From contig NGBS01000328.1 in the NCBI GenBank assembly GCA_002245135.1, positions 1 to 54,329 of the forward strand: a stretch of 54,329 nucleotides of DNA, given 5' to 3'. Positions 3,196-54,329 of this stretch are shown piece after piece. The notes below the pieces were generated by a model. It was not told the origin of the DNA, ran no database searches, and worked only from the letters and a program-made list of their open reading frames with translations. The position numbers and the translations under genes were made by a program. Numbering within the stretch: position 1 is the stretch's first letter; every line of letters begins with the position of its first letter. The stretch is from Proteromonas lacertae (Eukaryota).

Positions 3196-3547
3196 TATTT
3201 TATTATTTTTATATTGTATGTTTTTAATGAGGAAAGTAAATAATAATAAAAATAATAATTTATAAAATTTAAAAGAAATCAATTGATAATTCTTCCTCAT
3301 TTAATTCATTTCCTGATTGATTTATCTTTCTTATAGAATAATAAACTTTCAATCTTTCTATAAAAGTATTTAATCCCTTTTCACTTAATTTAACATTAAT
3401 ACAACGCACATTTCACTTATCATATTACTCATATTATCGTAATTACTAAAGTGGATTGTTTATGATACTGCAGTTAATAAAAGAAGAATAAAATGAATAT
3501 ATTTATTTTTTATTAAGATTATTTAATATCATAAAAATTAATACTTC

Positions 3548-6500
3548 TTACTTTACTTCTTCTTTCATTCCATCAATTTTCATTATTTTAACAATTGAAA
3601 ATGCATTTAAAAATGATTTTAATTCTGATTTATCAATATTTTCTTTTACTGTTATTGATAATTCTTCTAATCTATCAAAAATCTCTATATTTTCTATCAT
3701 CAATCTCAATTCTCTTTCATTTAATATATTTCCAGATAGATTAATATTATCTAACCATTTATGATCTTTTAAACTTTTTATTAACATTTTAAATCTTTTC
3801 TCACTCATTCCAATATCTATAAAAATACACATATATATTATATTCTAATAATACTTGAAAGATTTAATCTTTCACAATCAATAAATATATATAAATTGTT
3901 ACATATTATTTCCATTTCTTTATCTCCAATTATATTATTGTGTATGAAAATCTTTTTAAATCCATCTTTTCTCATAGACTTTATTAATTCTTTCAATCCT
4001 TTATAGCTTATGTGATTATTGGATAAAATAAGAGCTTTATAATCAATCTTTTTAATTTTTGAAATATGAGAATCATTAATATTCATATCTATTAATTAGA
4101 TATTACTATTATATACTTGAAAAATCATGGTATCTATTATCATATCTTTCCTTTTTTATGCAATAGTTCAGATAATATTCCAATTCTTCATTTGTCCATG
4201 ATAGACAGTTTATTTGAATGAATGGATATTCTTTTTTTTCTAAGGATTTTGAACATATTGTTTTTAATCCATTCATTCTAATATTATTTCCATTTAAATA
4301 TATTGCACTGTAATATCTAATTGAGGGTATTTGGTTGGTTAACAGTATTACACTTTCATCATCTATTGAAATATTACTCAAATTCAACTCATCATAATAT
4401 ATTAATCTATTTAAATTGTTTAATAACAGTTTCAATCCAACATTACCTATTGGATTGTCTATTAAACAACATTAAATATCAATAAATACTCTGAATGTGG
4501 TAATTTCTTACATTACACACTACTTTCATGTAATTCACCAAACACTCCATTCCAACTGAATCTATATTATTATCACTTATATCAAGCAACCTTAACTTTT
4601 CAATCTTCTTTAAACCATCTAATAAGTATTTTAATCCTAATGAAGATAATCCCATTTCTATTACATAACATTTTATTATTATTATACTTGTACAATATAA
4701 CTTCCAATCATGATTTTCATAGTATTTTAATAAATCTAAGTGTGGAGATAATACTTTCATTCCTTCATCTCCTATTTCATTTCCATATAATTCAAGATAT
4801 TTAAGGCTTGGTAATGAAGACAAATTGTTAATCAGAATTTCTACACTTTTATATGTTAGTTTATTATCTAAATAATTGTAAAAATATCAAAATTATACTA
4901 CTCAAATGTAATTTATTTACTTTTTTCAACTCATTTGATCTTAATAAAATAAACGATTTGAAGCAAACGTCATCTATTCCTGAATTGTTCAGATTTAGTA
5001 TATACCAACCATCATCGTTGATTATGATGTACTTCATCAACTCTGTAATTTCTTTATCAACAAGTAATTCTTTACTTTCATTAAAATTAAATTTTATCTT
5101 TGAAATAGGAAATTTGGAGAATAATGCTTTAAATCCTTTTGAATGAATATTTCTATTTCCTGCAATATCTATTTTCTGAAGATTTGGATATCTATTCAAT
5201 TCTTCTGATAATAATAGCATCGATTCATTATTTAAATTCATTTTTCCCAAGATTCAAAACATTATATTTGTTGATCAATAAATGCAAATATGGAAGCAAT
5301 AATTTAAATCCATTTTCACCAATTGGATTGCCTATTTTGAATTATAAAAACAGTGATTAATAATATATACATGTTAAATCTACATATTTCAATTTCATGA
5401 ATGGAATTGATTTCACAAATGATTCAACGAAATAATGAGTTAAATAACATTCCCTTATATCTAATATTTGTAGATTTAATAATTCTGAAAATAATGATCC
5501 AAACAAAGATTGATGTTGAATTGGAACTTTTATAAAACAACCTAATTATTATATAAATAGAAATTATTAAAAATATACCGAAAAATAATTTTGATGGATT
5601 GACAAACTTCATTATTCTAAAAAAATAACCAATTCCTTCTTCACAGAAACAAACATATTCTGAATCAATCCAGATTTTTTCTTTATCATCTTTATCAAAG
5701 TGAATACTGAATATCTTTTCATCTAAATAACATTCTTTTCTTTCTTTACATTGGTGATAAACTTGAAAATTCAGTATATCTTTTATGAAATTATCTTTTT
5801 TGTATAATTTTATCATCAATAATATTGATAATACTCTTTCGCTTGGTTTATGATTGTACGATTTCATTAAATCGTATCCAATTCTAATCCATTTATAATT
5901 CTCAAGATAATATTCTTTAGGTAACAATGTCACAATCTCAACATCATTATTGTATAACATTTCTTTACTATCTTTACACATCACTATACTATTATCATCA
6001 TCTCTCAACATTTCACTCATTTTCATTATCCCTTTATTCAGCTCTTTTAAACTCAGTCTATCTTCACTTCTCACTTTCAACACTCTTTCAATCATTTCTT
6101 TCATCAATTCATCACATTCTACATCAATACTGTATTTACATGTGAGAATATTGTTTATTATTTTTAGCTTATTATCATCTTCATTAAATGGCAATTTCTT
6201 ACAAATCATTTCATATAAAATACAGCCAATTGACCAAATCACACTTCTTTCATTACATTCATATCCATTCAACTCTTCAGGGCTTGTAAAGCAGATATCA
6301 TATACTCCCAAATCTTTTTCTTTTCTTACTTCATTTAAGAATAAATCACATAACTTTATTTCATCATCATTCTCTATTACAACATTACTACTCTTCAAAT
6401 TACCAACTACAATGTCATATTCACTTAATATCATCACAATATTGCATAAAGAACTTATCACATGAAATATATCATCGTTTGAATTGGTTTTAGTTTGAAT

Positions 6501-6838
6501 TATCTCTTCTAAGTCTCTAACATAATATTTTCTTTCCAATATCACATCATTATACCCGTAAATTGACATTTCAAATGAATATACATAACACAAACAACTT
6601 TTACACACAAATGAATGTTTTTCGATGAATTTGAAAATATTCTTTTCTTTCATTCCATTAACATTCAATTTTTTAATCATTTTATCATCGACTTTTCTAT
6701 TAACTGTAACTCCTTTATTTTCACTAATCACCTCATTTCTTTCTTTTATCTATTTATATAAAACATTAGTTATACATTGGTAGAATTATGTAAAAACAAA
6801 GATGATATTCCATCGATAAAAGATTCTAAATAATTCAT
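3548..6838 (-). CDS. Protein kinase-like (probable pseudokinase) domain fused to RNI-like leucine-rich repeats
   Basis: Kinase subdomains (NLKSSNV, SPEEL, IWSIGCILYEM), then LRR exons (LxxLxLxxNxIGDEG; LDISDNNIDSVG). The first exon runs from ATG 6838 and splices in frame to ORF 5424-6731. Confidence 0.75.
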
Positions 6839-6960
6839 TTTTATAACGAATAATGTTTCAAAAATAATATCGTTTCAATATTTTCATTTTCTATATTTTT
6901 ATAATAAAACAAATATTTACATTGATATATACATTATATTTACATTTATTCGATTTCCAT

Positions 6961-7767
6961 CATATATACTACTATAAATCCTTTATAATGTGTTGATCAT
7001 AGTATAAGAGAAGTTATATCTCGAATATATTTTATCACTTTTACACTAGACCCAATAAAGGGTTATTTCCGTATATATTATCTGATTTTGCAATACATTC
7101 TATAATTTTACGAAGTTACAAGATAAATACCTTTGAATCAAGCACTCTAACTATTTCAAATATACATTTTTAACTAAATCCCTTCATATCTTTCAAAATA
7201 ATCAAAAAATCTTTTGAAAGGCTTGATTGAAGTTTGATCAATTTTTTCATAAAAATCATTCTCATTCACATAATTGACCTAGACCATCAGCTCTTGCTGA
7301 TATTTTGTTTGTTAATAATATTTAATATATCAATTATTTCAATTGTGTATTATACTTTTATATCACTATAACTACTATTATTACCAGGATTTTGTGAGTT
7401 TTCATGGTTATTCATTTCTCAATTATTCAAGATCTGTTTTAGAATTTAAATATTCACTCTATATAGTGATTATTTTAATAAAATGAAAAATTGATCAAAC
7501 TTCAATCAAGCCTTTCAAAAGATTTTTTGATTATTTTGAAAGATATGAAGGGATTTAGTTAAAAATGTATATTTGAAATAGTTAGGGTGTTTGATTCAAA
7601 GGTATTTATCTTGTAACTTCGTAAATTAAAGAATCTATAACAAAATCAGATAATATATACGGAAATAACCCTTTATTGGGTCTAGTGTAAAAGTGATAAA
7701 ATATATTCGAGATATAACTTCTCTTATACTATGATCAACACATTAAAGGATTTATTGTAGTATAATG
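6961..7767. repeat. Inverted repeat: arms ~6961-7250 and ~7483-7767, ~230 bp spacer
   Basis: For example gttgatcatagtataagagaagttatatctcgaatatattttatcacttttacactagacccaataaagggttatttccg is the reverse complement of sequence within 7660-7740. Confidence 0.95.
7331..7563 (+). repeat. Diverged copy of the kinesin first exon and kinesin/VPS50 intergenic region (39335-39570)
   Basis: Direct alignment by eye, including an exact tattttaataaaatgaaaaattgatcaaacttcaatcaagcctttcaaaagattttttgattattttgaaagatatgaagggatttag core apart from one A. Confidence 0.93.
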
Positions 7768-8322
7768 TTTAGTAATAGAAATTTTATGCATTTCAAAGTA
7801 TATCAGAATGAAATATTTTGTATTTAGTGAATGTATAATTCGGAGTTGTTATTTTAAGAGGTATTAGACTTATATAGATAGAACCAAGTTATTATGAACA
7901 TGGTTATGATTTATTGTTGCTATTAATGTTAGTGGAGGTATCTGTGTTAATTTCCTTATTCGCTCACACCACAGCATTTTTGAATTTTGTGTGAATTTCG
8001 ATTTGAGTTTTTCACATTTTTGACACTTTGACCTTATTTTTTGAAAAGTAATAACTTTCACTATTATTTATCAGAATATAAGGTTAGTTTTACAAAAAAG
8101 GTAATTATTAAACTAAATACACTACAGTAAAATTAAACATATAATAAAAAAGGGTTTGGCAAATTTTTGTTTCATAATTCTTTATGGTTATTGAGAAAAA
8201 TCACTTTAACGAATTTGTTAAATTAGGCTTGATATGATTTGATTGAGTTGAATTTTAAAATCTCGCACATTGATGTATATATTATTATTATTATTATTAT
8301 TATTATTTAGATAATCAGCAAA

Positions 8323-9660
8323 ATGGGTATTAATTTTAGCAATTGGATGGAAGATGGTAGGAATGGTGCTATTAAGAGAAGAGGAAATCATGCTAGTAAT
8401 AATCCAAAAAGAAGAAAATTATCTGATAGTTTCACGGAGATGATTAACTCAATGGGTGTTGTTATAGTAGATGAGAGTGAGTTTTTAGATTTTAGAGGTG
8501 TATGTCACGTCTATCAGTATCCAGAATCAAAGATTTACATTCGAAGATGCTATAAAGATATGTATGAGGATATCCAAAAATATTTATTAGTATATAACAG
8601 TATAAGAATAACTGGTCAACCTGGTATAGGTAAGACCTCGTTCATTTATTTTTTGTTGTACAAATTAATGACTAATCCAGATTGGCAGTCAAAATACAAT
8701 TGTGTTTATATAGTCAAAGGTAAAAAATACGGTAGAGTTGATGAAATAGACATTTATAAAGTGATAAAAGGATTTAGTGGATATTATCTATCTAAATGTA
8801 GTATTGGTGCATCTGATATTAATGATGCAATAATAATAGTTGAAACATGCAACATTATTTTCGAAGGTAATAAAATCATGGTTATCTCGATCAGTTCGCC
8901 AGACGAGCAAAACAATAGTGAATATAAGAATAAAGTTGAATTGTATTTTGAATCGTTTAATTTTGATGAAATTCAAAAGTGGTTTAAGAACTGTATTGGT
9001 TTTGATAGTGTTGATGTTGGAAGTAAAGAATTTAAAAGGTCATGCGAAATATATGGTAATATTCCGAGGTTAGTGTACTTCCATTATTTATACAAAATGA
9101 ATTATGGTAGAGATTATTTGGAATATTATGAAAAACTTATAGATAGCGTTGTAGGTTTTGAAGGTTATAATATATTCCTAAAAAAATATGTAAGTAGAAA
9201 GTATTTGGAAGAAAATCCATTATTGAATATCATATTAAAATATGATTTAGTAAAAAAGCAAGATAGATTTTTAGAGAATAAAACATATAAACCAAAGCAA
9301 CATTTAAAATTTATCTCAAAATTCGTTGAAGATTATATTACTTATAAATTTTTCCCTTCAACTACAGCTAAAGAACATCGTAAGCTGATAGATAATTATA
9401 ATAAAATTCATGATAACAATATGAAGTCTTTGGCATTTAAGCATATTACAGCCTATGAATTAGCTAGAGAAATGATTATAATAGAGAGAAAAGATGAAAA
9501 TTTCGTATTTAATTCAGAGAAAAAGAAATCAATATATTATCCAGATGGTTCAAAGAATATAGTTTATATTATATTGGATAAAAAGAATTATTTTGATTTT
9601 ATTATGAATGGGGTGTTTATTAAAATACGATATAATGTAAATGATGATAAAAAAAAATAA
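8323..9660 (+). CDS. Crinkler/RHS-type (CR) P-loop NTPase
   Basis: IYIRRCYKDMY upstream of Walker A ITGQPGIGKT, then ISISSPD and YGNIPR, the motif order typical of CR-NTPases. The N-terminus is basic (KRR...PKRRKL). Confidence 0.75.
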   Translation: MGINFSNWMEDGRNGAIKRRGNHASNNPKRRKLSDSFTEMINSMGVVIVDESEFLDFRGVCHVYQYPESKIYIRRCYKDMYEDIQKYLLVYNSIRITGQPGIGKTSFIYFLLYKLMTNPDWQSKYNCVYIVKGKKYGRVDEIDIYKVIKGFSGYYLSKCSIGASDINDAIIIVETCNIIFEGNKIMVISISSPDEQNNSEYKNKVELYFESFNFDEIQKWFKNCIGFDSVDVGSKEFKRSCEIYGNIPRLVYFHYLYKMNYGRDYLEYYEKLIDSVVGFEGYNIFLKKYVSRKYLEENPLLNIILKYDLVKKQDRFLENKTYKPKQHLKFISKFVEDYITYKFFPSTTAKEHRKLIDNYNKIHDNNMKSLAFKHITAYELAREMIIIERKDENFVFNSEKKKSIYYPDGSKNIVYIILDKKNYFDFIMNGVFIKIRYNVNDDKKK

Positions 9661-9662
9661 AA

Positions 9663-10921
9663 ATGAAAGAATCCATCAGAGTATATAAACAATATATAAT
9701 ATAATATCATAGGAATATAGTGAAGTTAAAAATGGAACTTTTCTATATACAACAATATATGAGAATATAACATATAAAAATCCCCCAATATTAGAATTAA
9801 TAATAGAAGAAGAAGATGATGATGGTGAAGGAGGAAAAGAAGAAGAAAATGAAGGAGATGAAGAGGAAGAAGGGAAAATAAAAGCATATGCAAAGAATAA
9901 AGAGGATATATATTTAATGCGAAATTGTTATTATGAAATGTTGAAGATTATTTGTCCTGGAGGTATTATTGATATAAGTTATCCATATCAAAAGAACTAC
10001 TTAATATTTGGTCATAAAAAAATTGGTAAATCAATATTAGCAGCTGTTATAAAAGAATATATTCATCAAATGAATCTAAATATTGAAATAAAATATATAA
10101 GCGATAAAGAAAAACGAGAAAAAAAATATTATTACAATACTAATGAACAGTATATAGTTATTTCAGATGGAGAAATAATTGAAGGAGATGGTTATCCTGA
10201 TGCGAAAATGATAATATTATTAGCTGATCCAACTGATAAAAAGTATAAGACATTTCAGAGTAAAAGATGTCCACTTGTGATGTATATTCCTCCATTTACA
10301 AAAGAAGAAATCGAAAAAGTGATAATTCTGGAAGATCCAAAATATAAATTATACCGAAATTATCCTAATTATTTCATGAATAAATATGATTTAGATTTAC
10401 ATGTGAGAAAAATGGCAGGTCTTCACAAAAAGTTAATGGAGACATCTACTACATCTGATTTTAATTCATACATAGAAAATAGTATAGGTGATATAGATTC
10501 ATACATACAAAAGAAAATACCTGATTTTAATTCACATTTAAAAAAGAATATAAATGATATAAAATTATTCATTCAAAAAAAGATACAGAATACAGGTTCG
10601 TTACATATATATAATACAACTGTTAATAAGTATAGGAAAAATTACGAATTCTATGGTGGTATAATAGGAAATAGAGACTATGATAAAAGTACAATGAAAA
10701 GTTTGGTAAAATATATTATTAGTGATAAAAAAGTAAGAGAAATGATATTAATATATGAAACCTTTGAAGATGATGTTACTAAATCTGATGATTTAACATT
10801 TATATCTGAAACAATACAAGATATGGTGAATAGAACTTTAATTAAAATAAATTCAAAAGAAAAATGTAAAAAAATGATAGATTTATTGCTGAAATTTACA
10901 AATAGAAATGTAGTGGGATGA
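9663..10921 (+). CDS. Second, degenerate CR-type NTPase module (possibly the same gene as 8323-9660)
   Basis: IYLMRNCYYEML, FGHKKIGKS and FYGGII motifs. A 32-nt intron at 9681-9712 puts ATG 9663 in frame with ORF 9917 through an acidic linker. Confidence 0.6.
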
Positions 10922-11031
10922 AGGTAAAAATAAATTGTGAAGAAAGAAATAGAATTAAAATAAAGAATTAATTTCCTAAAATTTAATCAATACAGAATTT
11001 CGAAACAGTCTTTTTACTATAATCAACCATA

Positions 11032-11142
11032 TCATTTCTTTCATTTATCTATTCATATAAAACACTAGTTATACATTGGTAGAATTATGCAAAAACAAAG
11101 ATGATACTCCATCCGATAGAAAATATTAAATAATTCACTTTT
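11032..11142 (-). pseudogene. Diverged copy of the first exon and intron of the kinase-LRR gene (6733-6842)
   Basis: tagttatacattggtagaattatg.aaaaacaaagatgata is shared. The ATG is changed to GTG in the copy. Confidence 0.8.
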
Positions 11143-11220
11143 GAATAAATCGCTAAAAACAAAATATTATATGCTGACATACTTTAAAATGTATATTTCT
11201 AAACATCGTACAACAACAAA

Positions 11221-11467
11221 TTCTTTATAATGTGTTGATCAAAGTCTCATAGGAGATATACACTAGACCTAATAAGGGGTTATTTCCGTGTGTATGAACT
11301 GATTATGTAATGGATTCTTTAATTTACGAACTTACAAGATATATACCTTTGAATCAAACACATCTAACTATTTCAAATATGCATTTTTAAGCTAAATCCC
11401 TTCATATCTTTCAAAATAATCAAAAAATCTTTTGAAAGGCTTGATTGAAGTTTGATCAATTTTTCAT
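11221..11467. repeat. Third, more diverged copy of the repeat arm (direct to 6980-7250, inverted to 7483-7750)
   Basis: Shared blocks ctttataatgtgttgatca, cactagacc.aataa.gggttatttccg and ctaaatcccttcatatctttcaaaataatcaaaaaatcttttgaaaggcttgattgaagtttgatcaattttt. Confidence 0.92.
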
Positions 11468-11536
11468 TTTTATTAAAATAATCACTATATATAGTGAATA
11501 TTTAAATTCTGAAACAGATTTTGAAATAATTGAGAA

Positions 11537-12078
11537 ATGAGTAACCAAGAAAGCTGCACAAAATCCTGGTAACAATAGCAGCGATAGTGAATATAAAAGT
11601 ATAATACACAATTGAAATAATTGAAATAGGTAGTGTGTAGATTTCGTCCTCAGAATGAAAAAGAGCTTGCATTGAAAGAAGGTGGTAAAGTAAATTATGA
11701 TTTTTCTCCTGATGGTGTATATATAAATAATAATATATGTAAATATGAATAGATGTCTGTGTATGTAAAAACTGATTCACAAAAATTTACATTTGATCGA
11801 GTATTTGAGATGAAAACAACTCAAGAAGAAGTGTATACATATGCAGCAAAACCAGTAATTCTTCAAGTGATCGAAGGATATAATGGAACAATATTTGCTT
11901 ATGGTCAAACATCAGCTGGTAAAACTCATACAATGGAAGGACCTGATTATAATGATAAAGAAAAGCGAGGTATAATTCCTCGAATGATTGATACTTTGTT
12001 TGAAACAATCTATAGTGCGAATCAAAATATCGAATTTACTGTTCAAGTGTCAATGTTAGAAATATATAATGAAAAGAT
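11537..12078 (+). pseudogene. 3'-truncated, intron-containing duplicate of the kinesin heavy chain gene
   Basis: 11385-12078 is an inverted copy of 38880-39570. The ORF is identical in protein up to EIYNEKI and then stops. Both introns are retained and there is an extra A in exon 1. Confidence 0.9.
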
Positions 12079-12333
12079 AATGTAAGATAAAAGATGAATT
12101 AGTTCAAAAAAATATTCATATTAGATTATGAATGGAAATGTCAGATATGCTCTATTTAACTCTGGATCCCAAGATATAGAAAAGAGAAAAAATACAGAAA
12201 TACAAAATGTTAATTGTATTTTATTTCATGTTGATAATTAAGTAAATCTCTTATTGTATAATATACTTTGTTGATTTGTGTAGAACGAGATAGAAAAAAA
12301 ACAATCAAAAATTTAAAATATTCTTTAAATATC

Positions 12334-36145: not shown

Positions 36146-39100
36146 TTAATTCTTGAACATTGACATTAATCCACCTCTAATAGGAACTACTTGATTTGGA
36201 GTACCAGCTGTTGCTACTCCTCTTCCTTTTATTGCATTAATGGTTGCTCCACCTCTTATTGTAGATACTGAAGTAGGGAATCTAAATCCAGTTGATGATG
36301 ATGATCCACTATTCGCCTTCTTCTCTAATTCTTTTATTTTATCATTCAAAGATGTCATTTTCTTTTCATTCAAATGAAGAGTCATCATCATTTTAGATAA
36401 TTGTGCATCTTTTTCTTTTAATTTCATCTCCAATTTTCTATTTTCATCTCTCATCTTCTTCTCATTTGATTGTTTCATATAGGCTTGATCGAATAACTCG
36501 ATTTGTTCTTTACATGCATCTAATTGTAATTCTAATTGAACTACTCTATCGCATCTATTATGAAGACTATCTTGTAATGTTTGGATTTGTTGTTCTCTTA
36601 ATACAACATCATTCATCAATGATAAATAAGCTTCTGCATATTCTTCATCTACATCTGATTCATCAGTTGTTGTTGTTGATGTTTCTGTTTTTTCTTCTTT
36701 TCTTTTCAATAAATTAGTTAATACATCATTTCTTTCTTGTAATTGTTTATTCTTTGATTCATAATCTTTTAATCTTTCTTCTGTTGAAGCAAATCTTTCA
36801 CTTAATACCTTAAACTCCATTGTTATTTGATTATATTGTTCTACAAGATTCTCATTAGTTGAACTAAGACATGAATCATCTCTATTTCTTGTATTATTAT
36901 TATTATTATTATTTATATTTCCAGCTAATGCATTATCACTATCTACCAGTAATTGTAACTTCAAGGATGATGTTTCTGATAATAATTCTTCTTTTATACT
37001 TTTATATTGTTCAATTTCATCTTTCAGTTTTAATATCATTGTCTCTTGAGCTTTACATAATTCAGTCATTTGTTGAAGACTTTCTACTGGATTATCAGTA
37101 TTCTAAATAAACAAAATAATAATATATATATACATTTGAATCATTACATAATGATTGACCAATTTTGGTTATTTGTTCTTCTAATTGTGAATTTAAATCT
37201 TTTTCATTTGATAATAATTTCACAGTATTTTCATATTTCTTTTTCATCTCTTCATGCTCTATTTTCAACGTATCATAATCAACTTGATAAGTAGACAATC
37301 CTTCAGTTAAAGTATTAATCTGTATTTCATAATCTTTAATTTGTTTCTTCAATTCTGACAGTTTTATTTTGTCTTTCAATTGATCAGATCTACTTCCATC
37401 TTCTAAAGCAGCGATTGATCCTCTTCTTGACATACTTCCACTTACTCCTCTATTTCTACTCATTGTTGACTGTGAACTAGTTTCATCTATTTTTGAATCT
37501 AAACTATCTATTTTCTTTAACTCAGATACGGATGTTGATGTTGGTGAGTTTACTTCTGTTGGATTTTCTGAACCAACTTCACTAGTTGCTGTAGTTGCAC
37601 AAGTACTTGTAGGAATTGATAAATCAGTTTTGACTGAAGCTAAAGATGGTAAATTTTCTATATTCATTTCAGATAATGATTCTTCTGTTAATTTTACCAT
37701 TTCACTTACTTTATCATTTTCATTTTCTTCATCAGATGTTCTTTCTTTCATACTATCTTCACTTCTTGTTGCTTTTATTTCTTCTTCATCTGATCTTTCA
37801 CTCATATAACTACTATTATCACTATATTCACTATCACTTAATTCTATTGGAACTTCATCAGGATGTTTCTCTTTTATTTCTCTTGCTAGATCTTTCAAAG
37901 CGTGAATTCTTTCTTTAAAATACTTATTCTTCATTTCTACTGCTTTCACATGATCTTTGTAACTTTGCTGTACCTTTTCTATTTCTTCCATTTGTTCTAT
38001 AAATCCTGTTTTAAAATCTATTACAATATCTTTATAATTGTTACATTCTTCAGTTCTTTCATCCACTTGTTTCTGTAATTCATCTACATCATCCAAAGCA
38101 GCCTATATATATATATATATATTATATTATATACTTCACATCTTTGTTTCAACTTTTCATATTCATCTTCATCAATATCACTATTAACTACACTCTTTAT
38201 ATCACCTATTTCTTTACCTTCAGATAATAATTGTCTTTTTAAAAGTTCAATTTCTTTCAATGCAGCAGCTAATTCCATTTTCAATTCAGCTGCAGATTTT
38301 TCTGCATTTATTACAGCTTTATTCTTTATTCTTTTTGCTCTTATTCCAAATCTCAATGTTGATACTGTTTCTTCTTCATTATATTTCGCTGGAGAACAAT
38401 TCAATATTAACGCTGTTTTACTATTACCACCTAATGCTTCTTGTAATATTCTTGTCAATTGAGAATCTCGATAAGGAATATGACTACTTTTACCATCTGT
38501 TAATGCATTTATCACACTTCCTAATGTAAATAAAGATTTGTTTATATTCTTAGCTTCATCTAATCGAGTTCCTTCAGCTCCAGTCTTTTGAATCTTTTCA
38601 CTACCAGCTAAATCAACTAAATATAATCGACCACTTTTTCGAGATAATGTTTCTAAATTTCTTTGAGCTATTGTTATTACAAAAATACTGTGACTTCGAC
38701 TTGAAAATTTGTTCATATTCGTTGCACCTACACTTCGATTAGTTGTACCTATTTTCAATAGATTAAATATATCATCTGGAGATGAAACATAATAATCACT
38801 AGCATTTCCCACATATACTCCTTTATCTCGACTTTCATGAACTTTCAAATCTAAACGAGTTGGATCTAATAAATCACGAATCTTTTCATTATATATTTCT
38901 AACATTGACACTTGAACAGTAAATTCGATATTTTGATTCGCACTGTAGATTGTTTCAAACAAAGTATCAATCATTCGAGGAATTATACCTCGCTTTTCTT
39001 TATCATTATAATCAGGTCCTTCCATTGTATGAGTTTTACCAGCTGATGTTTGACCATATGCAAATATTGTTCCATTATATCCTTCGATCACTTGAAGAAT

Positions 39101-39419
39101 TACTGGTTTTGCTGCATATGTATACACTTCTTCTTGAGTTGTTTTCATCTCAAATACTCGATCAAATGTAAATTTTTGTGAATCAGTTTTTACATACACA
39201 GACATCTATTCATATTTACACATATTATTATTTATATATACACCATCAGGAGAAAAATCATAATTTACTTTACCACCTTCTTTCAATGCAAGCTCTTTTT
39301 CATTCTGAGGACGAAATCTACACACTACCTATTTCAATTATTTCAATTGTGTATTATACTTTTATATCACTATCGCTGCTATTATTACCAGGATTTTGTG
39401 AGTTTTCTTGGTTACTCAT
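36146..39419 (-). CDS. Kinesin-1 (conventional kinesin heavy chain)-like motor
   Basis: VVCRFRP, GQTSAGKT, SSRSH, LVDLAGSE and HIPYRDS, a coiled-coil stalk, and tail IRGG motifs. Confidence 0.93.
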
Positions 39420-39549
39420 TTCTCAATTATTTAAGATCTACTTCAAAATTTAAATATTCACTCTATATAATGATTATTTTAATAAAAATGAAAAATTGAT
39501 CAAACTTCAATCAAGCCTTTCAAAAGATTTTTTGATTATTTTGAAAGAT
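39420..39549. promoter_or_regulatory. Putative bidirectional promoter between kinesin and VPS50
   Basis: 130-bp gap between divergent start codons 39419 and 39550. Confidence 0.65.
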
Positions 39550-42500
39550 ATGAAGGGATTTAGCTTAAAAGGTAAATTTGCTAAACTTCAGCAAAGTGTG
39601 AAAGCTAATGTTGATAAAGTTAAAAACCAAATAGAACAACATCAACAGAAATCTTCTGAACAAGATACTCCAATAGAGAGTGGAAGTGCAGAAGTAACAC
39701 CAGTAGGTAATGAAGAGAATGAAGAAGAAGTATATGATGATGAAGAAGTAAGTAACGACGAAGAAGAGAAAGATTTAAAGAAATCTGTATCAAGTAAATT
39801 TAAAAATGCAAATCCTATGAAATTCATGAAAAATATGGCATCTTCATCCAATAAATTCGTGAAATCATTCGGTCAGAAGTCAATGGCTAAAATCAGTGAA
39901 TCTACGAAGAGTATAGCACATATAACATCAAATGTAACAACAAACATCACAAAACCAGTCAATATCTTTACCAAAGTTGAAATATCGCAGAAGTTTATAA
40001 TGCCAGCTGATTTAGCAATAGAAAAGAAGAGTGCCAAACAAATTGAAGTATAATAATTATTAATATAGTAATTAGAAACAAAATCGTACTAAAGATATAG
40101 ATGCACAAGTTCTACAGATGTTCAGTGAAGAATTTTTCAATGATAAATATGACCCGCTTCCAGAAGTTCTTGTATATATATGTGTATATATAATTATTAT
40201 ATAGGAGAGTTTACCTGCTGAATGTGACGAAGAAGAATTTGATTTATGGATTATGAAAATGACAACTGAAAAGAATGTTCAATTACAAATCGTAGATGAG
40301 AATTTAAATAAATGCATTAGTAGTAATCAAGGTAGATTTGTTGAAGGAATAGAGACAATCAATGAATTTGATTTAGATATACATAGAGCTGAGATCTCTT
40401 TATCCAATTCACGTAGACAATTGACATTAGTTCAAAATAGTATGATTGTTCCAGCATTGAAGATAGTGAATATGAAAAGGAGAAAAATGAGGCTTTTATT
40501 CGTATTGAATAAAGTTGACACAATAATAAAACTATTCGATTTAGATAGTCAATTAACAACTTTAATAAAAGAAAAGAAGTTAGGAGAAGCAGTGAAGATA
40601 GCTGTTCAATTACAGTCAATATTAGATGATAATAGTGTGAAAGAAATAGAATTATTAGAACCATTAGAACAAAGAGTGAAATTATCAATGAGTGAGTTAA
40701 AGGATATATTAAGTACTGGTTTAAGTGATATTATATTGAATTTCAATATTGATAACTATGAAGGTGCATTATATTCATTGATTGTATTGAATAAGAAAGG
40801 TAATAATAATGATAATAATGGAATATCACAACTAGCTGAACATATCAAAGAGTATTTATATATAATAATAATATATAATATAGAGCTTGTAAACAATTGA
40901 TTGAAACTGAAAGTCGTAAGAAACTGATCGATTTATTAATCGAAATAGATAGTAATAAATTCAATGGAGATGAATTAGAAGAGAAATCATTTGAAGAAAT
41001 ATGTGAAGTAATTCCATACAAATCAGTAGTAATTGGTTTAATAAGAATATATGAAGTTATCACTAATATAATACACACCCATTTCTTAATATGTCAATAT
41101 CACGCTAAACCATTCTCTAATGAATCTCATGATATGAAATATCTACATGAATTACAAGTAGAAAGTGTAGATGAAGATGTGATAAGAAATGCAAAGAATA
41201 ATATAATAAAAACAAATAATATAAGTTATAATGAAGGTGATTTCTTGACTGTATTAAATGAATTAATAGAATCAAAGAATGAGATATGGGAGAAAGCTGA
41301 AGAACAAGTTTCTATGTATATAAGAAATGTTGGAATTGATAATGCAAAGTATAAAATTGAACATTGGTTAGCTTTGATTGATAATTCCGATATATTCTGT
41401 AATGTATGTATTTTATTTTTAATATAATTCAATATTATATTCTTTATAGCTTGGCTTGTATTATGTTGGTAGTGAAGAATCGTATGTAATTAGAAATGCT
41501 TTGAGAGATAAAAGTGCTGATTATTTCGAAATATTACACAAAGCATCTAAAGATATACTACTTTCTACATTAGAAACTGAAGAATGGAAGAGAATACCAG
41601 TTAGTTTACAATCAATGGGAGGAATAGCTCAATTAATATCTCAACATAGAATATATCATCGATATGTAAGAGATACAAGTGAAGATGAACATATACTCAC
41701 CGCTTATCATGAAACTGGCAATCCATTTAAAGATCGAAATTTAGAATCAACACCATTGATATTTTATAAAGCTCCATCAATGACAATTGATGAGAATGAT
41801 ACTTCTCCATTAGGTAAAGATATTATAACTTCTAGTGCAATTAATGGATTTATTAAATGTACAGGTATTTATGTTCAGTTTATGGAATGTATACCAATTA
41901 TTGCAATGGAAATATTTGAAAGACTATGCGATGTATATATATCAATATCATATTATTATTTTTATAGTTGTTTAAAATCTATGTTTATTATGTCTATTCA
42001 TTATTCAAACCACATGATGAATTGGTTCAATGGTTAACTGATTGTAGAAGTAATAAAATCACTTACTTAAATCTTTATAACTTACTATGTGATGGATATA
42101 AAGCTTATTTTGGTAAAGACATGGAAGATACATTTATACCATCTCCATTATATCCAGAAGTAGTAACAAATCTAAGATTACAAACAACAGGAAGCGCCTT
42201 TCATTTTGAACAAAGAGGTGTAGCAATAGAATCCATTGCATTCTTAATAAAAGTAATAAAAAGAGTAGGAAGAGATATAGTATCAATTGCACCAGAATTA
42301 ACCTCAGAAATAATAGATGATTTTGTAAGTGAAGTATCAATTGCTTATTCTCAATTAGAAGAAGATATTTATAAATCAAATGCAAAACAATTATCAGATT
42401 TAGACGTTAATACTATTCCTACAATGATCACTAATGTAAAATGGAATAGCAATAAAAGGAATATGGAACAAAATCAATATATGGTGACTATATTAAAAGA

Positions 42501-43012
42501 ATTACATCGTATCTGGAGAACAATTGGTTCATTGATTGAATGTCAAACATTAAACGAATCATCAGTAGTTACATTATGGACTTATGTAATTGGTGATTAT
42601 TGTCAGAAGTTATTAGAAGGTTATTCTTCCATAAAGAAATGTTCTGAAGAAGGAAGAAGTAATATGAGTATGGATTTTGCAGGAATTGAAACTTTGTTAT
42701 TAGAAACACATAAACTAAAGTATTTATAACATTATTTATATTTATATGATGTATTATTATTATTATTAATAGTGGTGCTGGTGGTATTAGTTTAGCTCCT
42801 GTCAGGAATTATATCAATGCTTATTATATGGAAGCACAAGAGATTCTTGAATTAGCTAAAAGAAATACTGTATTCTTTATATTTATATATAAATATAGAA
42901 GGATTATACATATGAACAAATAATAGCATTAGCAAACTGTATAAATAAATTCAGTAGAAAAGATATGAATCAATTTGTTGATTCTTTGAAAATAATCTAT
43001 AATAAAAATTAA
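39550..43012 (+). CDS. VPS50: VPS50/syndetin (EARP complex subunit)
   Basis: LETEEW, and C-terminal LLEGYSSIKKCSEEGRSNMSMDF and YINAYY, matching the syndetin C-terminal pattern. Confidence 0.85.
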
Positions 43013-45524
43013 TAATTATATATATATTGATTGTTTTGAATGTATCATATAAACAAATTATACTTAGAACAATTCTAAAATAATTAAGATGAATTAGTTA
43101 TACATTAAGCATAGTGTTTCCTCATTTTCTTTTATACATTCTAAAATGAATTTATTAACTAATAAATCAATGAAAATACAATTCTATTCTTCAATCAGCC
43201 ATTTAGTTAAAGTTACATTCATATTAAACCAACTTCTGCCAATATATACATACGGGTCTAACTCATCTGGAAGATTTGTAAATAAAATATTATTATTTCC
43301 ATATTTGTCAATAATTGAGAATGTTTTTTTCTTCATGTCAAATATTACTTCACAACTGCAATCACCCAAATCTATTTTATTTAGTTTTTGCATTATACCA
43401 ATATTACCATAACAGTTTCTATGAAGTAGATATATCTCACAATATTTGCCATGCTGATTACTATACATATTAGCTGATTCTACAGCCCCTATATAGAAAT
43501 CAAGAAATGCACATGAAGATGAGAAATAAAAGTGGTAGATTGATTTTTCCATCTTTACATTTAACAAACATCTTCTCCCATATTCGCAAGTATAATAAGA
43601 AATTGTTCTTTTATCTGTGCGAAGTAAAATATGTTCATCGTAAGTAAAATGAAATTCTAAAGAATATATTTATATTCTTATACTATCATAAACCTCTAAT
43701 CTCATTTTATATTCTTTTGCATTCCATGTATTCTTAGCAACTACAATTAAACCACCTTCATATGGTTTACTTACTAATCCACTAATTTCACCTGTCTCTT
43801 TATTAAATGATAAACCATTTGGTAATTCTATTGATAAAATTATGACATTTATACTTGATTTGAGATAGAATTCTTCTACATCTCCATCAACTATTGGTTT
43901 TAAACATCCTTTTATATTTAAATATATCACTCCTTCATATTTAAATCCTTTTATTTTTCTATCTATCAATATTACATTACATCTTTTATATACTTTTTAT
44001 TCTTATTCTTTTTCTTTCATCTTTTATAATCTCATTTATTAATTCATTCTCTCTATCTTCAATTCCTTTATTATGAATATAATAATATATATTGTTAATG
44101 TTTTCAGCATGCTTTAATAAGATTTTATCATTTTCAATTATATCATATACAATTTCCATTCCACATTTCTCTACCATTACATCCAGTATTTGATATAATT
44201 CACTTTCGTTTTCTCTCATAAATGTAAATAAACATTTCAAAATATTTTCATTTCTTTTCTTTCTTTTCATAAAATCATTCAATTTATATTCATTTAATAA
44301 TTCGTCTAATAATTCTTTATTTTCTTCATAGATTAAACATAAGTCATTTTCATATATCAATAACATTACCATCATTTTAATAATCATATTTCCTTCAACT
44401 AATAACATTTCTAAATCTATTATGTTTTTCTTAACAATCTCATTATTGATCATTTCTTCTTCTATTAAAAATAGAATAGAAATGGTTTATACTTTTCATT
44501 TCGATTTCTTCATTTTCTCTTGGATAATTGTCTATCAGATATTCATATAATATTTCATTTTTGATTTTTGGAATTGAGATATATCTTATTAACTGATTTA
44601 TTTCATTTTCATTTATTCTGTTCATTATCTCTTTCATCATTTCATTTTCTTCTTCATTCAAATATTTCTCATTATTTAACATATAACCATTCAATAATTC
44701 TTTTAATTCACTTCTATTTCCATTAAATATTACTTTATTACTAAAGATTTCTTTTATACTATTCACATTCATCTCATTCATCATTTTATCATTCAATAAT
44801 CGATAATTCTTCATACTTAAGTATTTATTCATTTCTATCTTCATTTCTAATAGATTCTTATTCTCAAGTATGTATTTCTCATTCAATAATTCAACAATTA
44901 CTCTTTTATTTTTATACATTCTTTTCATTATATATTCTTTCAGTATGTTCAACAATCTATTCTCATTGTAACAAACACAAATCAATAACAGTTTAACACA
45001 GTTATTATCTTCAACATTTATATCATTTCCTTCATAATATCTTTCTAACATCAGAAATACATCTTTATTACATCCTTCATATAACTCTAATGGTTCTTTA
45101 AACTCTTTATCTTCTAAAATCTCTCGAAATGTATCATTACAACAACACAATAATGATTTTAATGTTTTCATTTCAACATCTTCAACTAATACTCTCAAAT
45201 CACCATATCCACACTTTATCATTTTTCGAATAAGACTATGTAGATATATTATAGCATAATTGAGCCGATTGATTATTATACCCTTCATTTTTATGTATAT
45301 TTGATTTAATTATCATTTCTATAGTCTTAAAATTGATAAAATATGTAAAAGCTTGATACTTGTCAAATCAATGTAATTTACATGTTTAATGTCATAATCA
45401 ATTTTTCATTCATTTCATGTATAAAATATAGATATAAAGGTATAAATATTTATAAATAATTAATTTTCAGTTTGTATTTTTAGAACAGCTTCATAAAATA
45501 TAGTTTCCATCCCCTTTTCTTTAA
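40567..45524. repeat. Left arm of a ~4.96 kb inverted segmental duplication
   Basis: Mirror coordinates sum to 93137-93138 for all paired ORFs. Confidence 0.97.
43184..45316 (-). CDS. BTB-like / He_PIG-type Ig / SPRY-like protein, copy 1
   Basis: Five exons joined by short introns. BTB-like GDLRVLVEDVEM..LKSLLCCCNDTF, then LPNGLSFNKETGEISG, then a SPRY-like C-terminus. Confidence 0.7.
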
Positions 45525-46379
45525 TATAAAGCATATACGAACATGGTATTCCTTTTACCATATTTTTTACAATTAGATCCAGATATTAAGTTTATTACTA
45601 GAGTTGTTGTTACTGTTATTTTTCCTTTGCTAAATAACTAAAAGCCAGTGGGTGTGTCAGATTCACCATTTAAATTCCAATAAATCTTCTTCTCAAACAT
45701 CTTTCCTAATTCTGCTACAATTTTCGATGCTTATTATCAACATTGTTAGTTTATTACTTCATCTACATATTCATTTTAATTGTAACAACCAAAAACAATA
45801 TTCTCGTTCATATTCTAGCACCACTGTGTCTTTGTATATTAATCATAAAACCACATAATAATATTTCTTATTCATCTATTGAATAAGGAGCTTAAAAAAT
45901 AAAAAATTTAAAATCATTCAAACTTGAGGTTTGCTTTGTGAAAATGTTTTGTTTATTTTTTCATTTAAATAAACAAACATATTATTACGAAAATAATTGG
46001 AGGTCCTAATTGCAGATATTATGAACTTTTATTTGGATCTCAATTTTTAAAACTAATGTCAAAATGAATTAATCATAAGTAAACGAAATTCACAGATAGT
46101 TTCAGAAACTCTTAATTACATATCTATATCCAGAAGAAATTTAATATAAAGGCTGTAACACCACTAGAAATAGGGTGTTAAAAATTTGAACAGCCGTTCT
46201 AAAAATAAGTTTTCGGTTAATGCTGATAAGAAGAGACAAATTATTGACGCTAAAGGAATTCACATGTAGATGTTTGTTGATAATTTTATAAATTCTGTCA
46301 AATGTTGTTTTAAAAATGATTTGTTTGTATGGAATTCTGAAAATAACTATAATTAATAATTATTGTTGTTATTTTGAAT

Positions 46380-46700
46380 ATATTTAAGCATCTTGATGGT
46401 GCTTCATCATATGTTAAATCTTGATAGATCTTCTTTTAAGAATTATTAAAGAAATCGTGCCTGATTTAGTTGCCTCATTTTATTTATATGATAGACTTGT
46501 CAGGAGAAGGAAATTAAAGCTTTTGAAAAATAGAATTCGTCAAAGTAGACAAGAAGATGTTTTGATGGACAGTAGAAAGGGAATGTTCTAATGACTTATC
46601 TATACTCATGTATGTGTACATATACTATAAAATTTTATATGTGTTTTGGTGATTAAACCTATTCTAAATGAAAACAGAACATTTTTAACATTTAGGGGTA
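46380..46700 (+). pseudogene. Degraded coding remnant, weakly Fanzor/TnpB-like
   Basis: Translation SFYLYDRLVRRRKLKLLKNRIRQSRQEDVLMDSRKGMF* followed by MCFGD*. Resemblance judged by eye only. Confidence 0.3.
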
Positions 46701-46762
46701 TGAATTTTTTTTTTTGTTCCGATTTTTAAAACATTATTTTTGATAGTTGAATGAAATAAAAT

Positions 46763-47678
46763 ATGTCTAATTTATATTCAAACTGTATGCAAATATTGGA
46801 TGAAATAGAATCGTTGAATGCCATATTTTCTGCTGGTATATTTGTCAACATATCTTTGTTGTAATTAGAAGAACTAAACTACGATTTTAATTACATTGCA
46901 TCATTGAAAGATATTTTAAGAGAAGATAATAAAGATGTAAAAATTGACTCTCTTCATCAATTTGATTTATCTCTTAATATAAATGTATTATCACCTGTTA
47001 CACATGATCTAGAAAGAAATTAATGATGAAATATCCATTAAATACACAGTTGGTTTTACTATTCCACCAGAATATCCAGATATTAAACCAATGGTTTCAT
47101 TTACAACTCCTCAACTTACAAATTCTCAACAAAATGAGATTCAATATAATATAGAGAAATTCTTACTATCAAATCAGAATTATGAAGTGATTATCTATTC
47201 AACATATTTGTTTGTTGAAGATGAACTTTTATCATTATTAGAAAAGAGTAATGATGATAATAACAAATCAGAAACTTCATCATCACAGAAAATATATTTA
47301 GGATTTCGAATAATGTGGTTTCATCATATTAGAAATCCACTTAAACGCAAAGCAATAATCAATTGGTCATCAGAATTAGGTTTATATGGTGGTACAAAGA
47401 TAGGATATCCTGGAGTAGTATATATTGAAGGATTAGAAGAAAGTTGTTGTGAAATGGTTAGAAGATTAAAAACTCTTAGATGGAAAGCTATTGTTGTTAG
47501 ATATGTAGATAAAATACTCTGTAATGATATGGAAGACCTTGATAAGAAAAGAACCTTCCCTAAAAAGTTCACAGAATATGGAAATGATGAATTGAATGAG
47601 GTGTTTAAAATATTTAAAGAAAAGGGGATGGAAACTATATTTTATGAAGCTGTTCTAAAAATACAAACTGAAAATTAA
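46763..47678 (+). CDS. RWD domain plus DUF1115 protein (RWDD2-like)
   Basis: DEIESLNAIF, PPEYP and WFHHIRNPLKRKAIINWSSELGLYGGTKIGYPGVVYIEG. Confidence 0.88.
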
Positions 47679-47821
47679 TTATTTATAAATATTTATACCT
47701 TTATATCTATATTTTATACATGAAATGAATGAAAAATTGATTATGACATTAAACATGTAAATTACATTGATTTGACAAGTATCAAGCTTTTTCATATTTT
47801 ATCAATTTTAAGACTATAGAA

Positions 47822-49954: not shown

Positions 49955-50125
49955 AATTGTATTTTCATTGATTTATTAGTTAATAAATTCATTTTAGAAT
50001 GTATAAAAGAAAATGAGGAAACACTATGCTTAATGTATAACTAATTCATCTTAATTATTTTAGAATTGTTCTAAGTATAATTTGTTTATATGATACATTC
50101 AAAACAATCAATATATATATAATTA

Positions 50126-53065: not shown

Positions 53066-54329
53066 TTATTTAATATCTTCAACAAAAGTGTTTAATTCAT
53101 CAAATGGTAAAACATATTGTTCTTATCTTTTTCTTTGCTTCTTCAAAAAGTTTAGATTTATCCAGTTTTATAAGTCACTTGGTTGAAAAATTTTGGGATA
53201 TTTAGATATATCTCGATTTATCTTTTAATTTTTATACTCACTTGGTTATTTGGGCTTATATAAAATAAACCATATGGAGAATTATTATTAATAAGCTGTT
53301 TTGTGTTTGAAAAACATTCTATATAGATTTTGAAGTATCATTATCATTTCAGGTGCTAATGAATGACTCTTTCCAATTGTAATTTGAATTCCATATGCAG
53401 CTAGTAATAAATCAATATCGGGGTGATTATGTTTATAATTTAAGTCAATAATTGGAAATTTTTTTTCTTTATAATTAAAAGCTTTTATTTCTTTCTGTAA
53501 ATCACTATCATCTGAAACTTTAACTATTTCTTTTTTATCAAAGACAACATATTTATTCTTTTTATCATCTAAGTAATATTCTTTAATTTCATTAATCAAA
53601 CTATCATAAAAAGTTTTACAATTCTTCATTAAATATGATATAATTCTTTCATATAATAATCCAGCTAAACTTCCTACTGGATTTTCTTTTAAGTTTTATC
53701 ATTTTTTCACAACTTTCTTTATCATTTATCTTATAAAGTTTATCACATACCATCTTTTTGACTTCTTCAGATATAAATATAAGACCATTGGATTTTATAA
53801 TACCATTTTCATCTTCATATGTATCATATATCAATATATTATCATATTCACCTTTTGAAATGGAGATTTATTTATTCCTTTTAATATTTCTTCCATTATC
53901 ACCTTGTTCTTTTCATCATTAATTGAAGCTTTTATATAATTTTCACTGTCTTTATTTCTGTAAAACCAATAACACCTTTATATAATGGGTATTTTTCTTC
54001 ATACACTTTTTTCCATATATCATATTCATCCTTATTGAAAAATATTTGTGATTTATCAGAATTTATTTCATCACTATTTGCAAATCCTTTATATGTAATA
54101 TCCAGTTCAAAGCCATTCAAATTTTTAACTATAATGTATTTTGTTTCTCCAACTTTCTCTACTTCTTCTTGTGTTAATTGAGGTATATACATTATTGATG
54201 GAAATCTTTTACTTTGAAATGTTTTATACTGATTCTTGGATGGATTAGCTAATAATATTATCATTTTTGCATCTGCATAATCATCTTCACCAATTACAAC
54301 TTCATCAGAAATTACAATTTGAAATTTTT
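53066..54329 (-). pseudogene. CR-type NTPase-associated module plus restriction-endonuclease-like (REase) domain, frameshifted, 5' end outside the window
   Basis: DAKMIILLANPSKNQYKTFQSKRFPSIMYIP matches DAKMIILLADPTDKKYKTFQSKRCPLVMYIP of 9917-10921. It continues into NHPDID...IQITIGKSH and a terminal QYVL. Several single-base frame breaks. Confidence 0.65.

Follow-up and report, generated by a model that had tools for sequence, protein, structure and literature searches.

The window, that is, the whole stretch of Proteromonas lacertae DNA analyzed here, covers positions 1-54,329 of the forward strand of contig NGBS01000328.1 (GCA_002245135.1). Around two Crinkler-like genes, it carries three diverged copies (C1, C2 and C3), which have in common part of the kinesin/VPS50 intergenic region fused to X, a sequence of ~200 bp. 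Repeats were compared by self-BLASTN within this one window of 54,329 nt, and the distribution of the junction is known for the window only. The features are the following:

3300..6838, minus strand: resident kinase-LRR gene, 3′ end approximate (Pfam: Pkinase E 1.2e-18, LRR_6 E 5.8e-11); predicted exon 1 6838-6776, 26-nt GT-AG intron 6775-6750, kinase exon 6749-5424, LRR exons further left
6733..7246, minus strand: C1, with the 73-bp VPS50 promoter/start core (7246-7174), X (7173-6965), a diverged linker, then kinase exon 1
7247..7325, no strand: spacer between C1 and C2, unique 79 bp with a TGTTTGTT motif at 7306 and no match elsewhere in the window
7326..7830, plus strand: C2, with a copy of kinesin intron 1/exon 1/promoter (7326-7485), core (7486-7558), X (7559-7764) and X2 (7765-7830)
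8323..9660, plus strand: CR ORF1, 445-aa P-loop NTPase of Crinkler/RHS type ending in an A-rich run; Atlas 0.97, recognition 2350; nSTAND3 E 2.4e-6 (Pfam)
9713..10921, plus strand: CR ORF2, 402 aa between stops, first ATG at 9917; resembles an NTPase, but its Walker A is altered; Atlas 0.93-0.94, recognition 1936 (low)
11032..12078, minus strand: C3, with a decayed copy of kinase exon 1/intron 1 (11139-11032), X2, X (11391-11180), core (11464-11392), kinesin promoter/exon 1/intron 1 (11465-11628, frame broken) and a kinesin coding copy (11629-12078, 99.3%)
11180..11391, no strand: X in C3, with inverted repeat ends (14/16), each with TTAA outermost (possible MITE; C3 only)
38880..39580, no strand: donor locus, with the 5′ part of kinesin (ATG 39419, minus), a 130-bp intergenic region and the start of VPS50 (predicted ATG 39550, plus); 73-bp core at 39491-39563
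40567..52571, no strand: inverted duplication, 4959-bp arms (40567-45524 and 47614-52571, 99.86%) and a 2.09-kb single-copy spacer
53183..54329, minus strand: CR2, ORF2 paralog interrupted by the end of the window; its nuclease-like C-terminal part is retained, in ORF 53695-53288

Both pairs of repeats that the earlier note had described around the CR genes, one inverted (7331-7750 versus 11221-11620) and one direct and diverged (6733-7250 versus 11032-11467), were recovered, the former as 7326-7830 versus 11628-11150 (83% over 513 columns, E 2e-152) and the latter as 6733-7246 versus 11032-11464 (73%, 89 gap positions, E 6e-84). C1 and C2 form a further inverted repeat (282 bp, 96%, 239-nt spacer), which is absent from the note. 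The claim that these repeats are built from the kinesin/VPS50 promoter about 30 kb away and a ~200-bp sequence holds for all three copies: they lie 28-32 kb from this intergenic region and match it over 90 bp at 95.6% (C1), 251 bp at 93.2% (C2) and 694 bp at 98.0% (C3). X is 86-87% identical between C3 and C1 or C2, and 96.6% between C1 and C2. These differences show that the copies are not a single collapsed sequence, and the note was right that they do not result from one misassembly. The orientations of the copies are mixed, with C2, read in the VPS50 sense, facing CR ORF1. All duplicated pieces whose source is known come from less than 45 kb away and have retained their introns. Segment identities range stepwise from 86% to 99.9%, which suggests that copying and gene conversion took place repeatedly, at different times.

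The presence of a CR-NTPase locus, also proposed previously, is borne out by the similarity of ORF1 to Crinkler/RHS-type clusters and to nSTAND3 and, more weakly, by the NTPase-like domain of ORF2. These two ORFs show no significant likeness to each other and are therefore not a recent tandem duplicate. ORF2 matches P0001, a full-length relative of 542 aa, at residues 94-353 only (39% over 157 aa with its NTPase part). Residues 349-502 of P0001 are matched only in CR2, and residues 354-542, where the C-terminal REase domain of CR proteins would be expected, have no match after position 10918. The ORF2 stop is 110 bp from C3, the missing ORF would need 408 bp, and C3 occupies the place of the nuclease-like C-terminal ~190 residues, so that ORF2 is truncated. 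CR2 reads in several frames (introns or breaks). The C-terminal stretch of CR2 and its relatives is putative and nuclease-like: P-D-I-D, Q-x-T and S-H are invariant in all five aligned rows and fit what we take to be the REase motif. This stretch has no match in Pfam, NCBIfam or PDB, and single-sequence fold predictions (pLDDT 36 and 41, the latter for this stretch) were unusable. A HMMER search with the C-terminal ORF of CR2 gave four matches, i.e., two relatives of metagenomic type and two TPR proteins set aside as spurious, and word-index protein searches returned nothing for this ORF or for ORF1. ORF1 had no match among plasmids and one relative among viral contigs (tblastn), with no usable locus; scans for related loci likewise gave no usable locus for ORF1 in metagenome contigs or for P0001 in viral and prokaryote contigs. 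Overall, these proteins resemble the CR (Crinkler-RHS-type) NTPase and REase proteins of Zhang et al. 2016, as outlined in PMC5289972 and PMC11342252, by their P-loop NTPase, their helical region and, in P0001 and CR2, a C-terminal nuclease-like stretch, and their nearest Atlas clusters are CRN/RHS. However, they have no Pfam Crinkler or RHSP match, no header domain (Ubl or helical) was recognized by Pfam on the N-terminus of ORF1, upstream of which further exons are possible, and ORF2 ends before the nuclease-like part.

Judging from the sequence, C1 is the upstream region of the kinase-LRR gene and includes, on its left, the gene's genuine 5′ end, the predicted exon 1 being in frame with the kinase ORF. 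The segment 6733-6838, previously taken for captured DNA, would thus be the gene's own first exon and intron. At the donor locus, kinesin and VPS50 are still open frames, whose labels are backed by Pfam (Kinesin for the former, Vps54_N and Syndetin_C for the latter). The common junction reported near VPS50 codon 7 was confirmed, since all three copies leave VPS50 at one place, with exact identity ending at 39563-39570 (codons 5-7) and partial likeness up to 39580. This promoter-X junction shows an imperfect likeness of ~15-16 nt at VPS50 codons 6-10; microhomology was judged at this junction, the only one with two parent sequences to compare. A 17-mer at the start of VPS50 is found four times in the window compared to 0.35 expected. 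The 73-bp core is identical (73/73 bp) in all four copies, donor included, and the neighbouring sequence differs by 5-14%; the probability of such an invariant run (79 columns, with 20 variable columns in 237) is 0.004. A 23-mer of the core had no exact match in JGI metagenome contigs, and a structured RNA was rejected (z -0.7 to -0.9, no Rfam hit).

C3 extends 450 bp past the end of C2, into kinesin coding sequence. Its differences from the donor number three in 487 bp, then 11 in 124 bp, then none in 73 bp; the step between the first two segments is sharp (Fisher 3.4e-6), for a breakpoint picked after seeing the data. Two of the three differences are synonymous and the third is intronic, and kinesin exon 1 of C3 is frame-broken. 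Because the donor kinesin and VPS50 genes are intact and C3 has a new junction at either end, we rejected the possibility that a staggered-break inversion links C3 to the donor. The boundary that the earlier note had placed at 12241 was not recovered: the kinesin copy stops at 12078, and 12079-12333 matches the rest of the window only in short AT-rich words.

From these repeats, the note had proposed a CR-associated cassette that spreads together with captured host fragments. The duplicated, intron-bearing host gene fragments around a CR-type locus and their repeated rearrangement stand, but the spreading cassette is not supported. Its left "end" is where the resident kinase-LRR gene begins, in frame, its inverted "ends" are host kinesin sequence, one being 450 bp longer, and the right-hand copy, C3, truncates the CR gene to be carried. 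Furthermore, none of the 10 boundary pairs shows a target-site duplication above chance (matches of 3-5 bp, null P 0.29-0.94). Element-specific terminal inverted repeats with matching end positions were not found, the flanking repeats being host kinesin/VPS50 sequence, and no transposase was seen at the locus. A scan for Helitron ends (3′ hairpin, CTRR and T, with a stem of at least 5 and a gap of at most 12 nt) detected eight sites in the window but none within 6733-12241. Pack-MULEs and Helitrons are known to string together intron-bearing 5′ fragments of several genes. The locus carries such strung fragments but is devoid of the dedicated TIRs, the 8-11-bp target duplication and the hairpin and CTRR end of these elements.

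We consider it probable (about 0.6) that this region, where gene families evolve fast, is a local hot spot of templated duplication and not a mobile element. The repeats would be intron-bearing DNA copies of nearby gene starts that arose from repeated template switching during break repair, and later gene conversion would have patchily overwritten them; the CR genes would be neighbours and casualties, not drivers. The donors are local, copies were gained with the donor left intact and orientations are mixed, as in templated insertions. The order of events that we infer would begin with a copy of the kinesin/VPS50 promoter joined once to X, via the ~15-nt imperfect likeness, upstream of the kinase-LRR gene. 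This chimeric 5′ region would have been re-copied twice within 5 kb, inverted as C2 and direct as C3, the latter replacing the 3′ end of CR ORF2. C1 and C2, inverted and 239 nt apart, were probably homogenized or duplicated later (96.6%). The kinesin end of C3 may have been extended recently by ~450-490 bp from the native locus, the old promoter copy providing the entry homology. Finally, the 5-kb inverted duplication at VPS50, beside the second CR gene, would be a separate and very recent event. Its outer end is inside VPS50, its arms show seven differences (five substitutions and two single-base indels in T runs), and CR2 sits 717 bp from its junction. It should be emphasized that this duplication and conversion scenario explains the identity of the 73-bp core (P=0.004) only by conversion confined to the core tract, and attributes to chance both the inverted ends that X shows in C3 (14/16) and the closeness of CR2 to another duplication junction.

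Such a scenario has precedents. Local n-jumps and templated insertions, as outlined in PMC7025897, also include locally sourced copies, mixed orientations and inverted duplications with a single-copy spacer, but those are single events in human genomes, whereas several ages and conversion are found here. According to the account in PMC7563717, trypanosome RHS loci were shaped by duplication and non-allelic gene conversion. Like these clusters, the window carries CR-type paralogs within 50 kb, pseudogenes, duplications and non-allelic gene conversion; however, the mosaics described in trypanosomes are between RHS paralogs and retroelements, whereas the starts of housekeeping and kinase genes were copied here. 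The fish Crinkler-like genes AACRNL (PMC12957317) were also duplicated with pieces of neighbouring host genes, but by flanking hAT/mariner elements with recognizable TIRs and transposases, in contrast to the host promoter copies and the lack of any visible transposase here.

The identity of the core fits either promoter co-option or conversion. According to the former, which is compatible with the hot spot of templated duplication and seems possible but rather unlikely, the kinase-LRR gene and a CR gene are driven back to back by the duplicated cores of C1 and C2, respectively, with the 73 bp kept intact by selection. This would account for the 79-column invariant run and for the position of the copies, since, in the VPS50 sense, C1 faces the kinase ATG at 340 bp and C2 faces CR ORF1 at 770 bp. 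X and X2 also contain GT-AG stretches of 30-31 nt at positions matching between copies, as in a possible spliced leader, but such stretches are frequent in this AT-rich DNA (29 candidates listed). Moreover, the core is equally intact in C3, which faces a decayed exon, the ATG derived from VPS50 opens a frame of five (C1, C2) or 10 codons (C3) upstream of the real starts, and gene conversion yields an identical pattern.

X itself could be a non-autonomous TTAA-type DNA transposon of ~210 bp (Kolobok-like MITE) inserted upstream of the kinase gene, whose ends resembling VPS50 codons 6-10 seeded the promoter join; we regard this as doubtful. In C3, X is bounded by TTAA on either side, its termini are purine/pyrimidine and its inverted repeat agrees at 14/16 positions (shuffle P=0.001); equal or better inverted ends are found in 36 of 15426 sampled 16-mers of the window and in six of the 1182 that start with TTAA (0.2-0.5%). 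Kolobok elements produce TTAA duplications and have RR..YY ends, as indicated in PMC9587614. However, these ends were noticed post hoc and are seen in one of the three copies (11/16 in C1 and 10/16 in C2), and VPS50 is not resumed beyond the right TTAA (P=0.56 and 0.88), although another target is possible. The right end of X in C3 is also identical at 13/15 positions to native VPS50 (39565-39579), and the "TIR" may therefore be diverged host sequence. In the window, X has no source besides its three copies, which all have an identical left flank, and was never found devoid of the promoter piece. Decayed coding sequence was rejected as the origin of X, since codon-position bias is absent (4/4/4 in 64 nt, with few sites).

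A strong form of the earlier proposal, that CR NTPase-nuclease proteins, encoded either by this locus in an intact state or by paralogs acting in trans, cut DNA near CR genes and that the CR gene spreads with captured host fragments, appears very unlikely. Each of the two CR loci in the window lies next to duplications that originate from the kinesin/VPS50 locus, these events are of several ages, and nine of the 10 listed junctions are less than 1.2 kb from CR coding DNA, which makes up 13% of the window; however, the 10 junctions form only two clusters and are thus not independent. Pairs of NTPase and REase have been linked to transposons (PMC5289972) and Medea1-type elements described as mobile (PMC11342252), but neither element ends nor target-site duplications were found here. 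The nuclease-like stretch keeps invariant D, Q and H residues, but its fold is putative, ORF2 is devoid of it and has an altered Walker A, and the flanks of CR2 inside the window carry neither X nor a promoter copy. It is just as improbable that CR genes are selfish elements, causing DNA breaks close to CR loci and acquiring the starts of host genes through the repair, one captured bidirectional promoter core, kept letter-perfect, now driving a CR gene and the kinase-LRR gene.

An assembly artefact (chimeric or fold-back reads, or merged haplotypes) is a similarly remote explanation for the youngest pieces, namely the 450-bp kinesin extension of C3 and the 5-kb inverted duplication, the older copies being real: identities of 99.3% and 99.86%, three kinesin differences as silent as allelic variants and T-run indels as two of the seven differences between the arms would agree with it, but the extension is continuous with a copy in which 11 of 124 sites differ from the donor, the arms also differ by five substitutions, and the older copies, up to 14% apart, cannot be one misassembly.

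The literature search found no paper on a CR-type family in a Blastocystis-like lineage, although Zhang et al. 2016 may list such proteins, and none on gene-fragment capture; this work indicates such a family in such a lineage. If CR genes were selfish elements, the proposed transposon origin of Crinkler/RHS effectors would be linked to ongoing, observable promoter capture, and the locus would allow the long-standing conjecture that CR proteins act on their own genome to be tested. If it is instead a hot spot of templated duplication, as we favor, it would clearly illustrate, in nature, how a multigene-family locus undergoes serial templated duplication and gene conversion, and how new promoter-gene chimeras originate in a compact protist genome.

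The repeats that the earlier note had described around the CR (Crinkler/RHS-type NTPase) genes are real. In the window, which supplies the DNA evidence for the whole analysis, self-BLASTN recovered the inverted pair (7326-7830 / 11628-11150, 83%) and the direct pair (6733-7246 / 11032-11464, 73% with gaps). It also confirmed the kinesin/VPS50 source, since the three copies C1, C2 and C3 each match 38880-39580. This donor comprises the head-to-head starts of the kinesin and VPS50 genes (Pfam Kinesin, Vps54_N, Syndetin_C). The proposed common junction likewise stands: in each of the three copies the VPS50 match stops at codons 5-7, with partial likeness up to codon 10, and the same ~200-bp sequence (X) follows.

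Repeat copies and inverted duplication
6733-7246: C1; left part is a resident gene start (ATG 6838, 21 codons, then a 26-nt GT-AG intron with predicted splicing, the frame leading on to a kinase ORF followed by LRR exons)
7326-7830: C2; kinesin exon 1, promoter and X, directed toward CR ORF1
11032-12078: C3; decayed kinase exon and intron copy (91%, in-frame stops), X, promoter, frame-broken kinesin exon 1, 450 bp more of kinesin
40567-45524 / 47614-52571: inverted duplication, 4959 bp, 99.86% (5 substitutions and 2 single-base indels)

Since a resident gene (with predicted splicing) begins in the left part of C1, C1 constitutes the DNA upstream of this kinase-LRR gene; position 6733, previously taken as an edge, is no element boundary. 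C1 and C2 form their own 282-bp inverted repeat (96%, spacer of 239 nt), and this region (6965-7764) could give a hairpin RNA or a cruciform. A 25-bp segment of X (~7020-7044 in C1, ~7688-7711 in C2) is missing from C3 and nearly coincides with a GT..AG stretch. Right of 12078, no homology to the remaining window sequence was found. A short W-x-C-x2-C stretch at 12125-12160 (+), right of the kinesin copy, resembles by eye a broken RanBP2-type zinc finger; its source is not in the window.

The idea of a mobile cassette spreading with CR genes fared less well. No target-site duplication above chance was found at any of the 10 boundary pairs, and the inverted repeats are host sequence with unmatched ends, 450 bp apart; the locus is therefore probably not such a cassette. 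Among the generally known hallmarks of Pack-MULEs and Helitrons, the Helitron-type end occurs at eight sites in the window and at none in the locus. No transposase was found among the 17 ORFs (part of those in the window) scanned with Pfam. Crinkler-like genes moved elsewhere by flanking hAT/mariner elements have true TIRs and transposases (PMC12957317), unlike the present locus.

Identity changes in steps along the copies. X is 86-87% identical between C3 and C1/C2 and 96.6% between C1 and C2, the kinase exon copy reaches 91%, and kinesin exon 1 plus promoter 92.5-95%. The core, a 73-bp promoter/VPS50-start piece (39491-39563), is 100% identical in all six pairs, and the kinesin extension of C3 matches at 447 of 450 positions (two synonymous differences and one intronic). 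C3 differs from the donor at 3 positions in 487 bp and then at 11 in the adjacent 124 bp (Fisher 3.4e-6, for a breakpoint picked post hoc). These steps rule out a single insertion event and fit repeated copying and conversion. Our main reading (probability about 0.6) is that template switching in the course of break repair duplicated nearby gene starts on several occasions, and that gene conversion would later have overwritten parts of the copies. What we observe directly are the copies, their identities, the truncation (below) and the missing target duplications; order of events and repair pathway are our inference. The structure agrees with local n-jumps and templated insertions (PMC7025897).

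ORF1 (8323-9660) carries a P-loop and was placed among Crinkler/RHS-type clusters of the Atlas protein resource (0.97, recognition 2350); ORF2 (9713-10921) scored 0.93-0.94 with low recognition. ORF2 has a paralog, CR2, at the right window end (53183-54329, minus strand; 50% identity over 88 aa). CR2 has a nuclease-like C-terminal part, and there is a TGTTTGTT motif at 53031. HMMER with the CR2 C-terminal ORF matched four proteins among 1.84 billion, two of them relatives; the other two, TPR proteins, were set aside. One relative, P0001 (542 aa), covers the whole family: ORF2 aligns to residues 94-353, and residues 349-502 are matched only by CR2. In the C-terminal stretch, P-D-I-D, Q-x-T and S-H are invariant in all five aligned rows, which agrees with a general REase motif; the REase fold itself is putative. 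Only 110 bp separate the ORF2 stop from C3, versus 408 bp for the missing ORF, and weak CR2 likeness peters out by ~10998; therefore, C3 occupies the expected CR gene end, and ORF2 is truncated. ORF1 and ORF2, which may be one gene or two, show no detectable likeness to each other, and P0001, a protein of ORF2 type, has an N-terminus of its own. A 33/66-bp tandem repeat inside ORF2 (10455-10586) is absent in the alignment with P0001. A single-frame ORF of 210 aa beside the repeat locus (12334-12966, minus strand) had no match in Pfam, NCBIfam or PDB; by eye its motif suggests an AAG/MPG DNA glycosylase-like fold, and it is possibly a bacterial-type gene.

Three findings count against the main reading. 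The first is the invariance of the core together with the orientation of C1 and C2, which point in opposite directions, C1 toward the kinase gene and C2 toward the CR gene. Such conservation of the core is improbable by chance (79 invariant columns, 20 of 237 variable, P = 0.004) and could reflect co-option of the promoter as an added function, by C1 for the kinase gene and C2 for the CR gene. This is possible but of low probability; C3 has an equally intact core, and the ATG within the core starts a frame of just 5-10 codons. The core was rejected as a structured RNA. The second finding concerns X in C3, which is flanked by TTAA on either side and carries an inverted repeat of 14/16 (a level with a shuffle P of 0.001, reached by 36 of 15426 window 16-mers); Kolobok-type elements are likewise TTAA-ended with inverted repeats (PMC9587614). 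That X is a MITE that seeded the promoter join is less probable still than promoter co-option. Yet only one of three X copies has these ends, the right flank in C3 fails to resume VPS50, and the end word matches VPS50 itself (13/15).

The third finding is the position of CR2: just 717 bp separate it from one end of the 4959-bp inverted duplication, which starts inside VPS50, and 9 of 10 junctions are <=1.2 kb from CR DNA (13% of the window), but the ten make up two clusters only. That CR proteins drive the capture and spread of host fragments is improbable. On the main reading, this duplication, whose single-copy spacer of 2.09 kb contains an RWD-domain gene, has the look of a fold-back with such a spacer (PMC3907307); it could be an assembly artefact, an explanation that is improbable for the youngest pieces.

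The window (GC 25%) is eukaryotic DNA with short GT-AG introns; Blastocystis includes AT-rich lineages whose introns vary in length (PMC12129017). The window holds 15 TGTTTGTT motifs versus 4.2 expected, a polyadenylation-site mark in Blastocystis (PMC4159000). Together, base composition, introns and motif count would suggest a Blastocystis-like, AT-rich protist. BTB-like gene pieces, at 19231-20688 (+) by eye and 43986-45309 (-) with a Pfam BTB match for 44443-45309, form a further expanded family in the region.

Searches of the Blastocystis literature on Crinkler (by title or opening), retrotransposon hot spot and MITE (among the matches listed) turned up no account of such a locus; the supplements of Zhang et al. 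2016 may list CR proteins from the lineage. At Trypanosoma cruzi RHS loci, duplication and non-allelic conversion are shaping forces (PMC7563717). The present locus is a genuine rearrangement hot spot adjoining CR-type genes.
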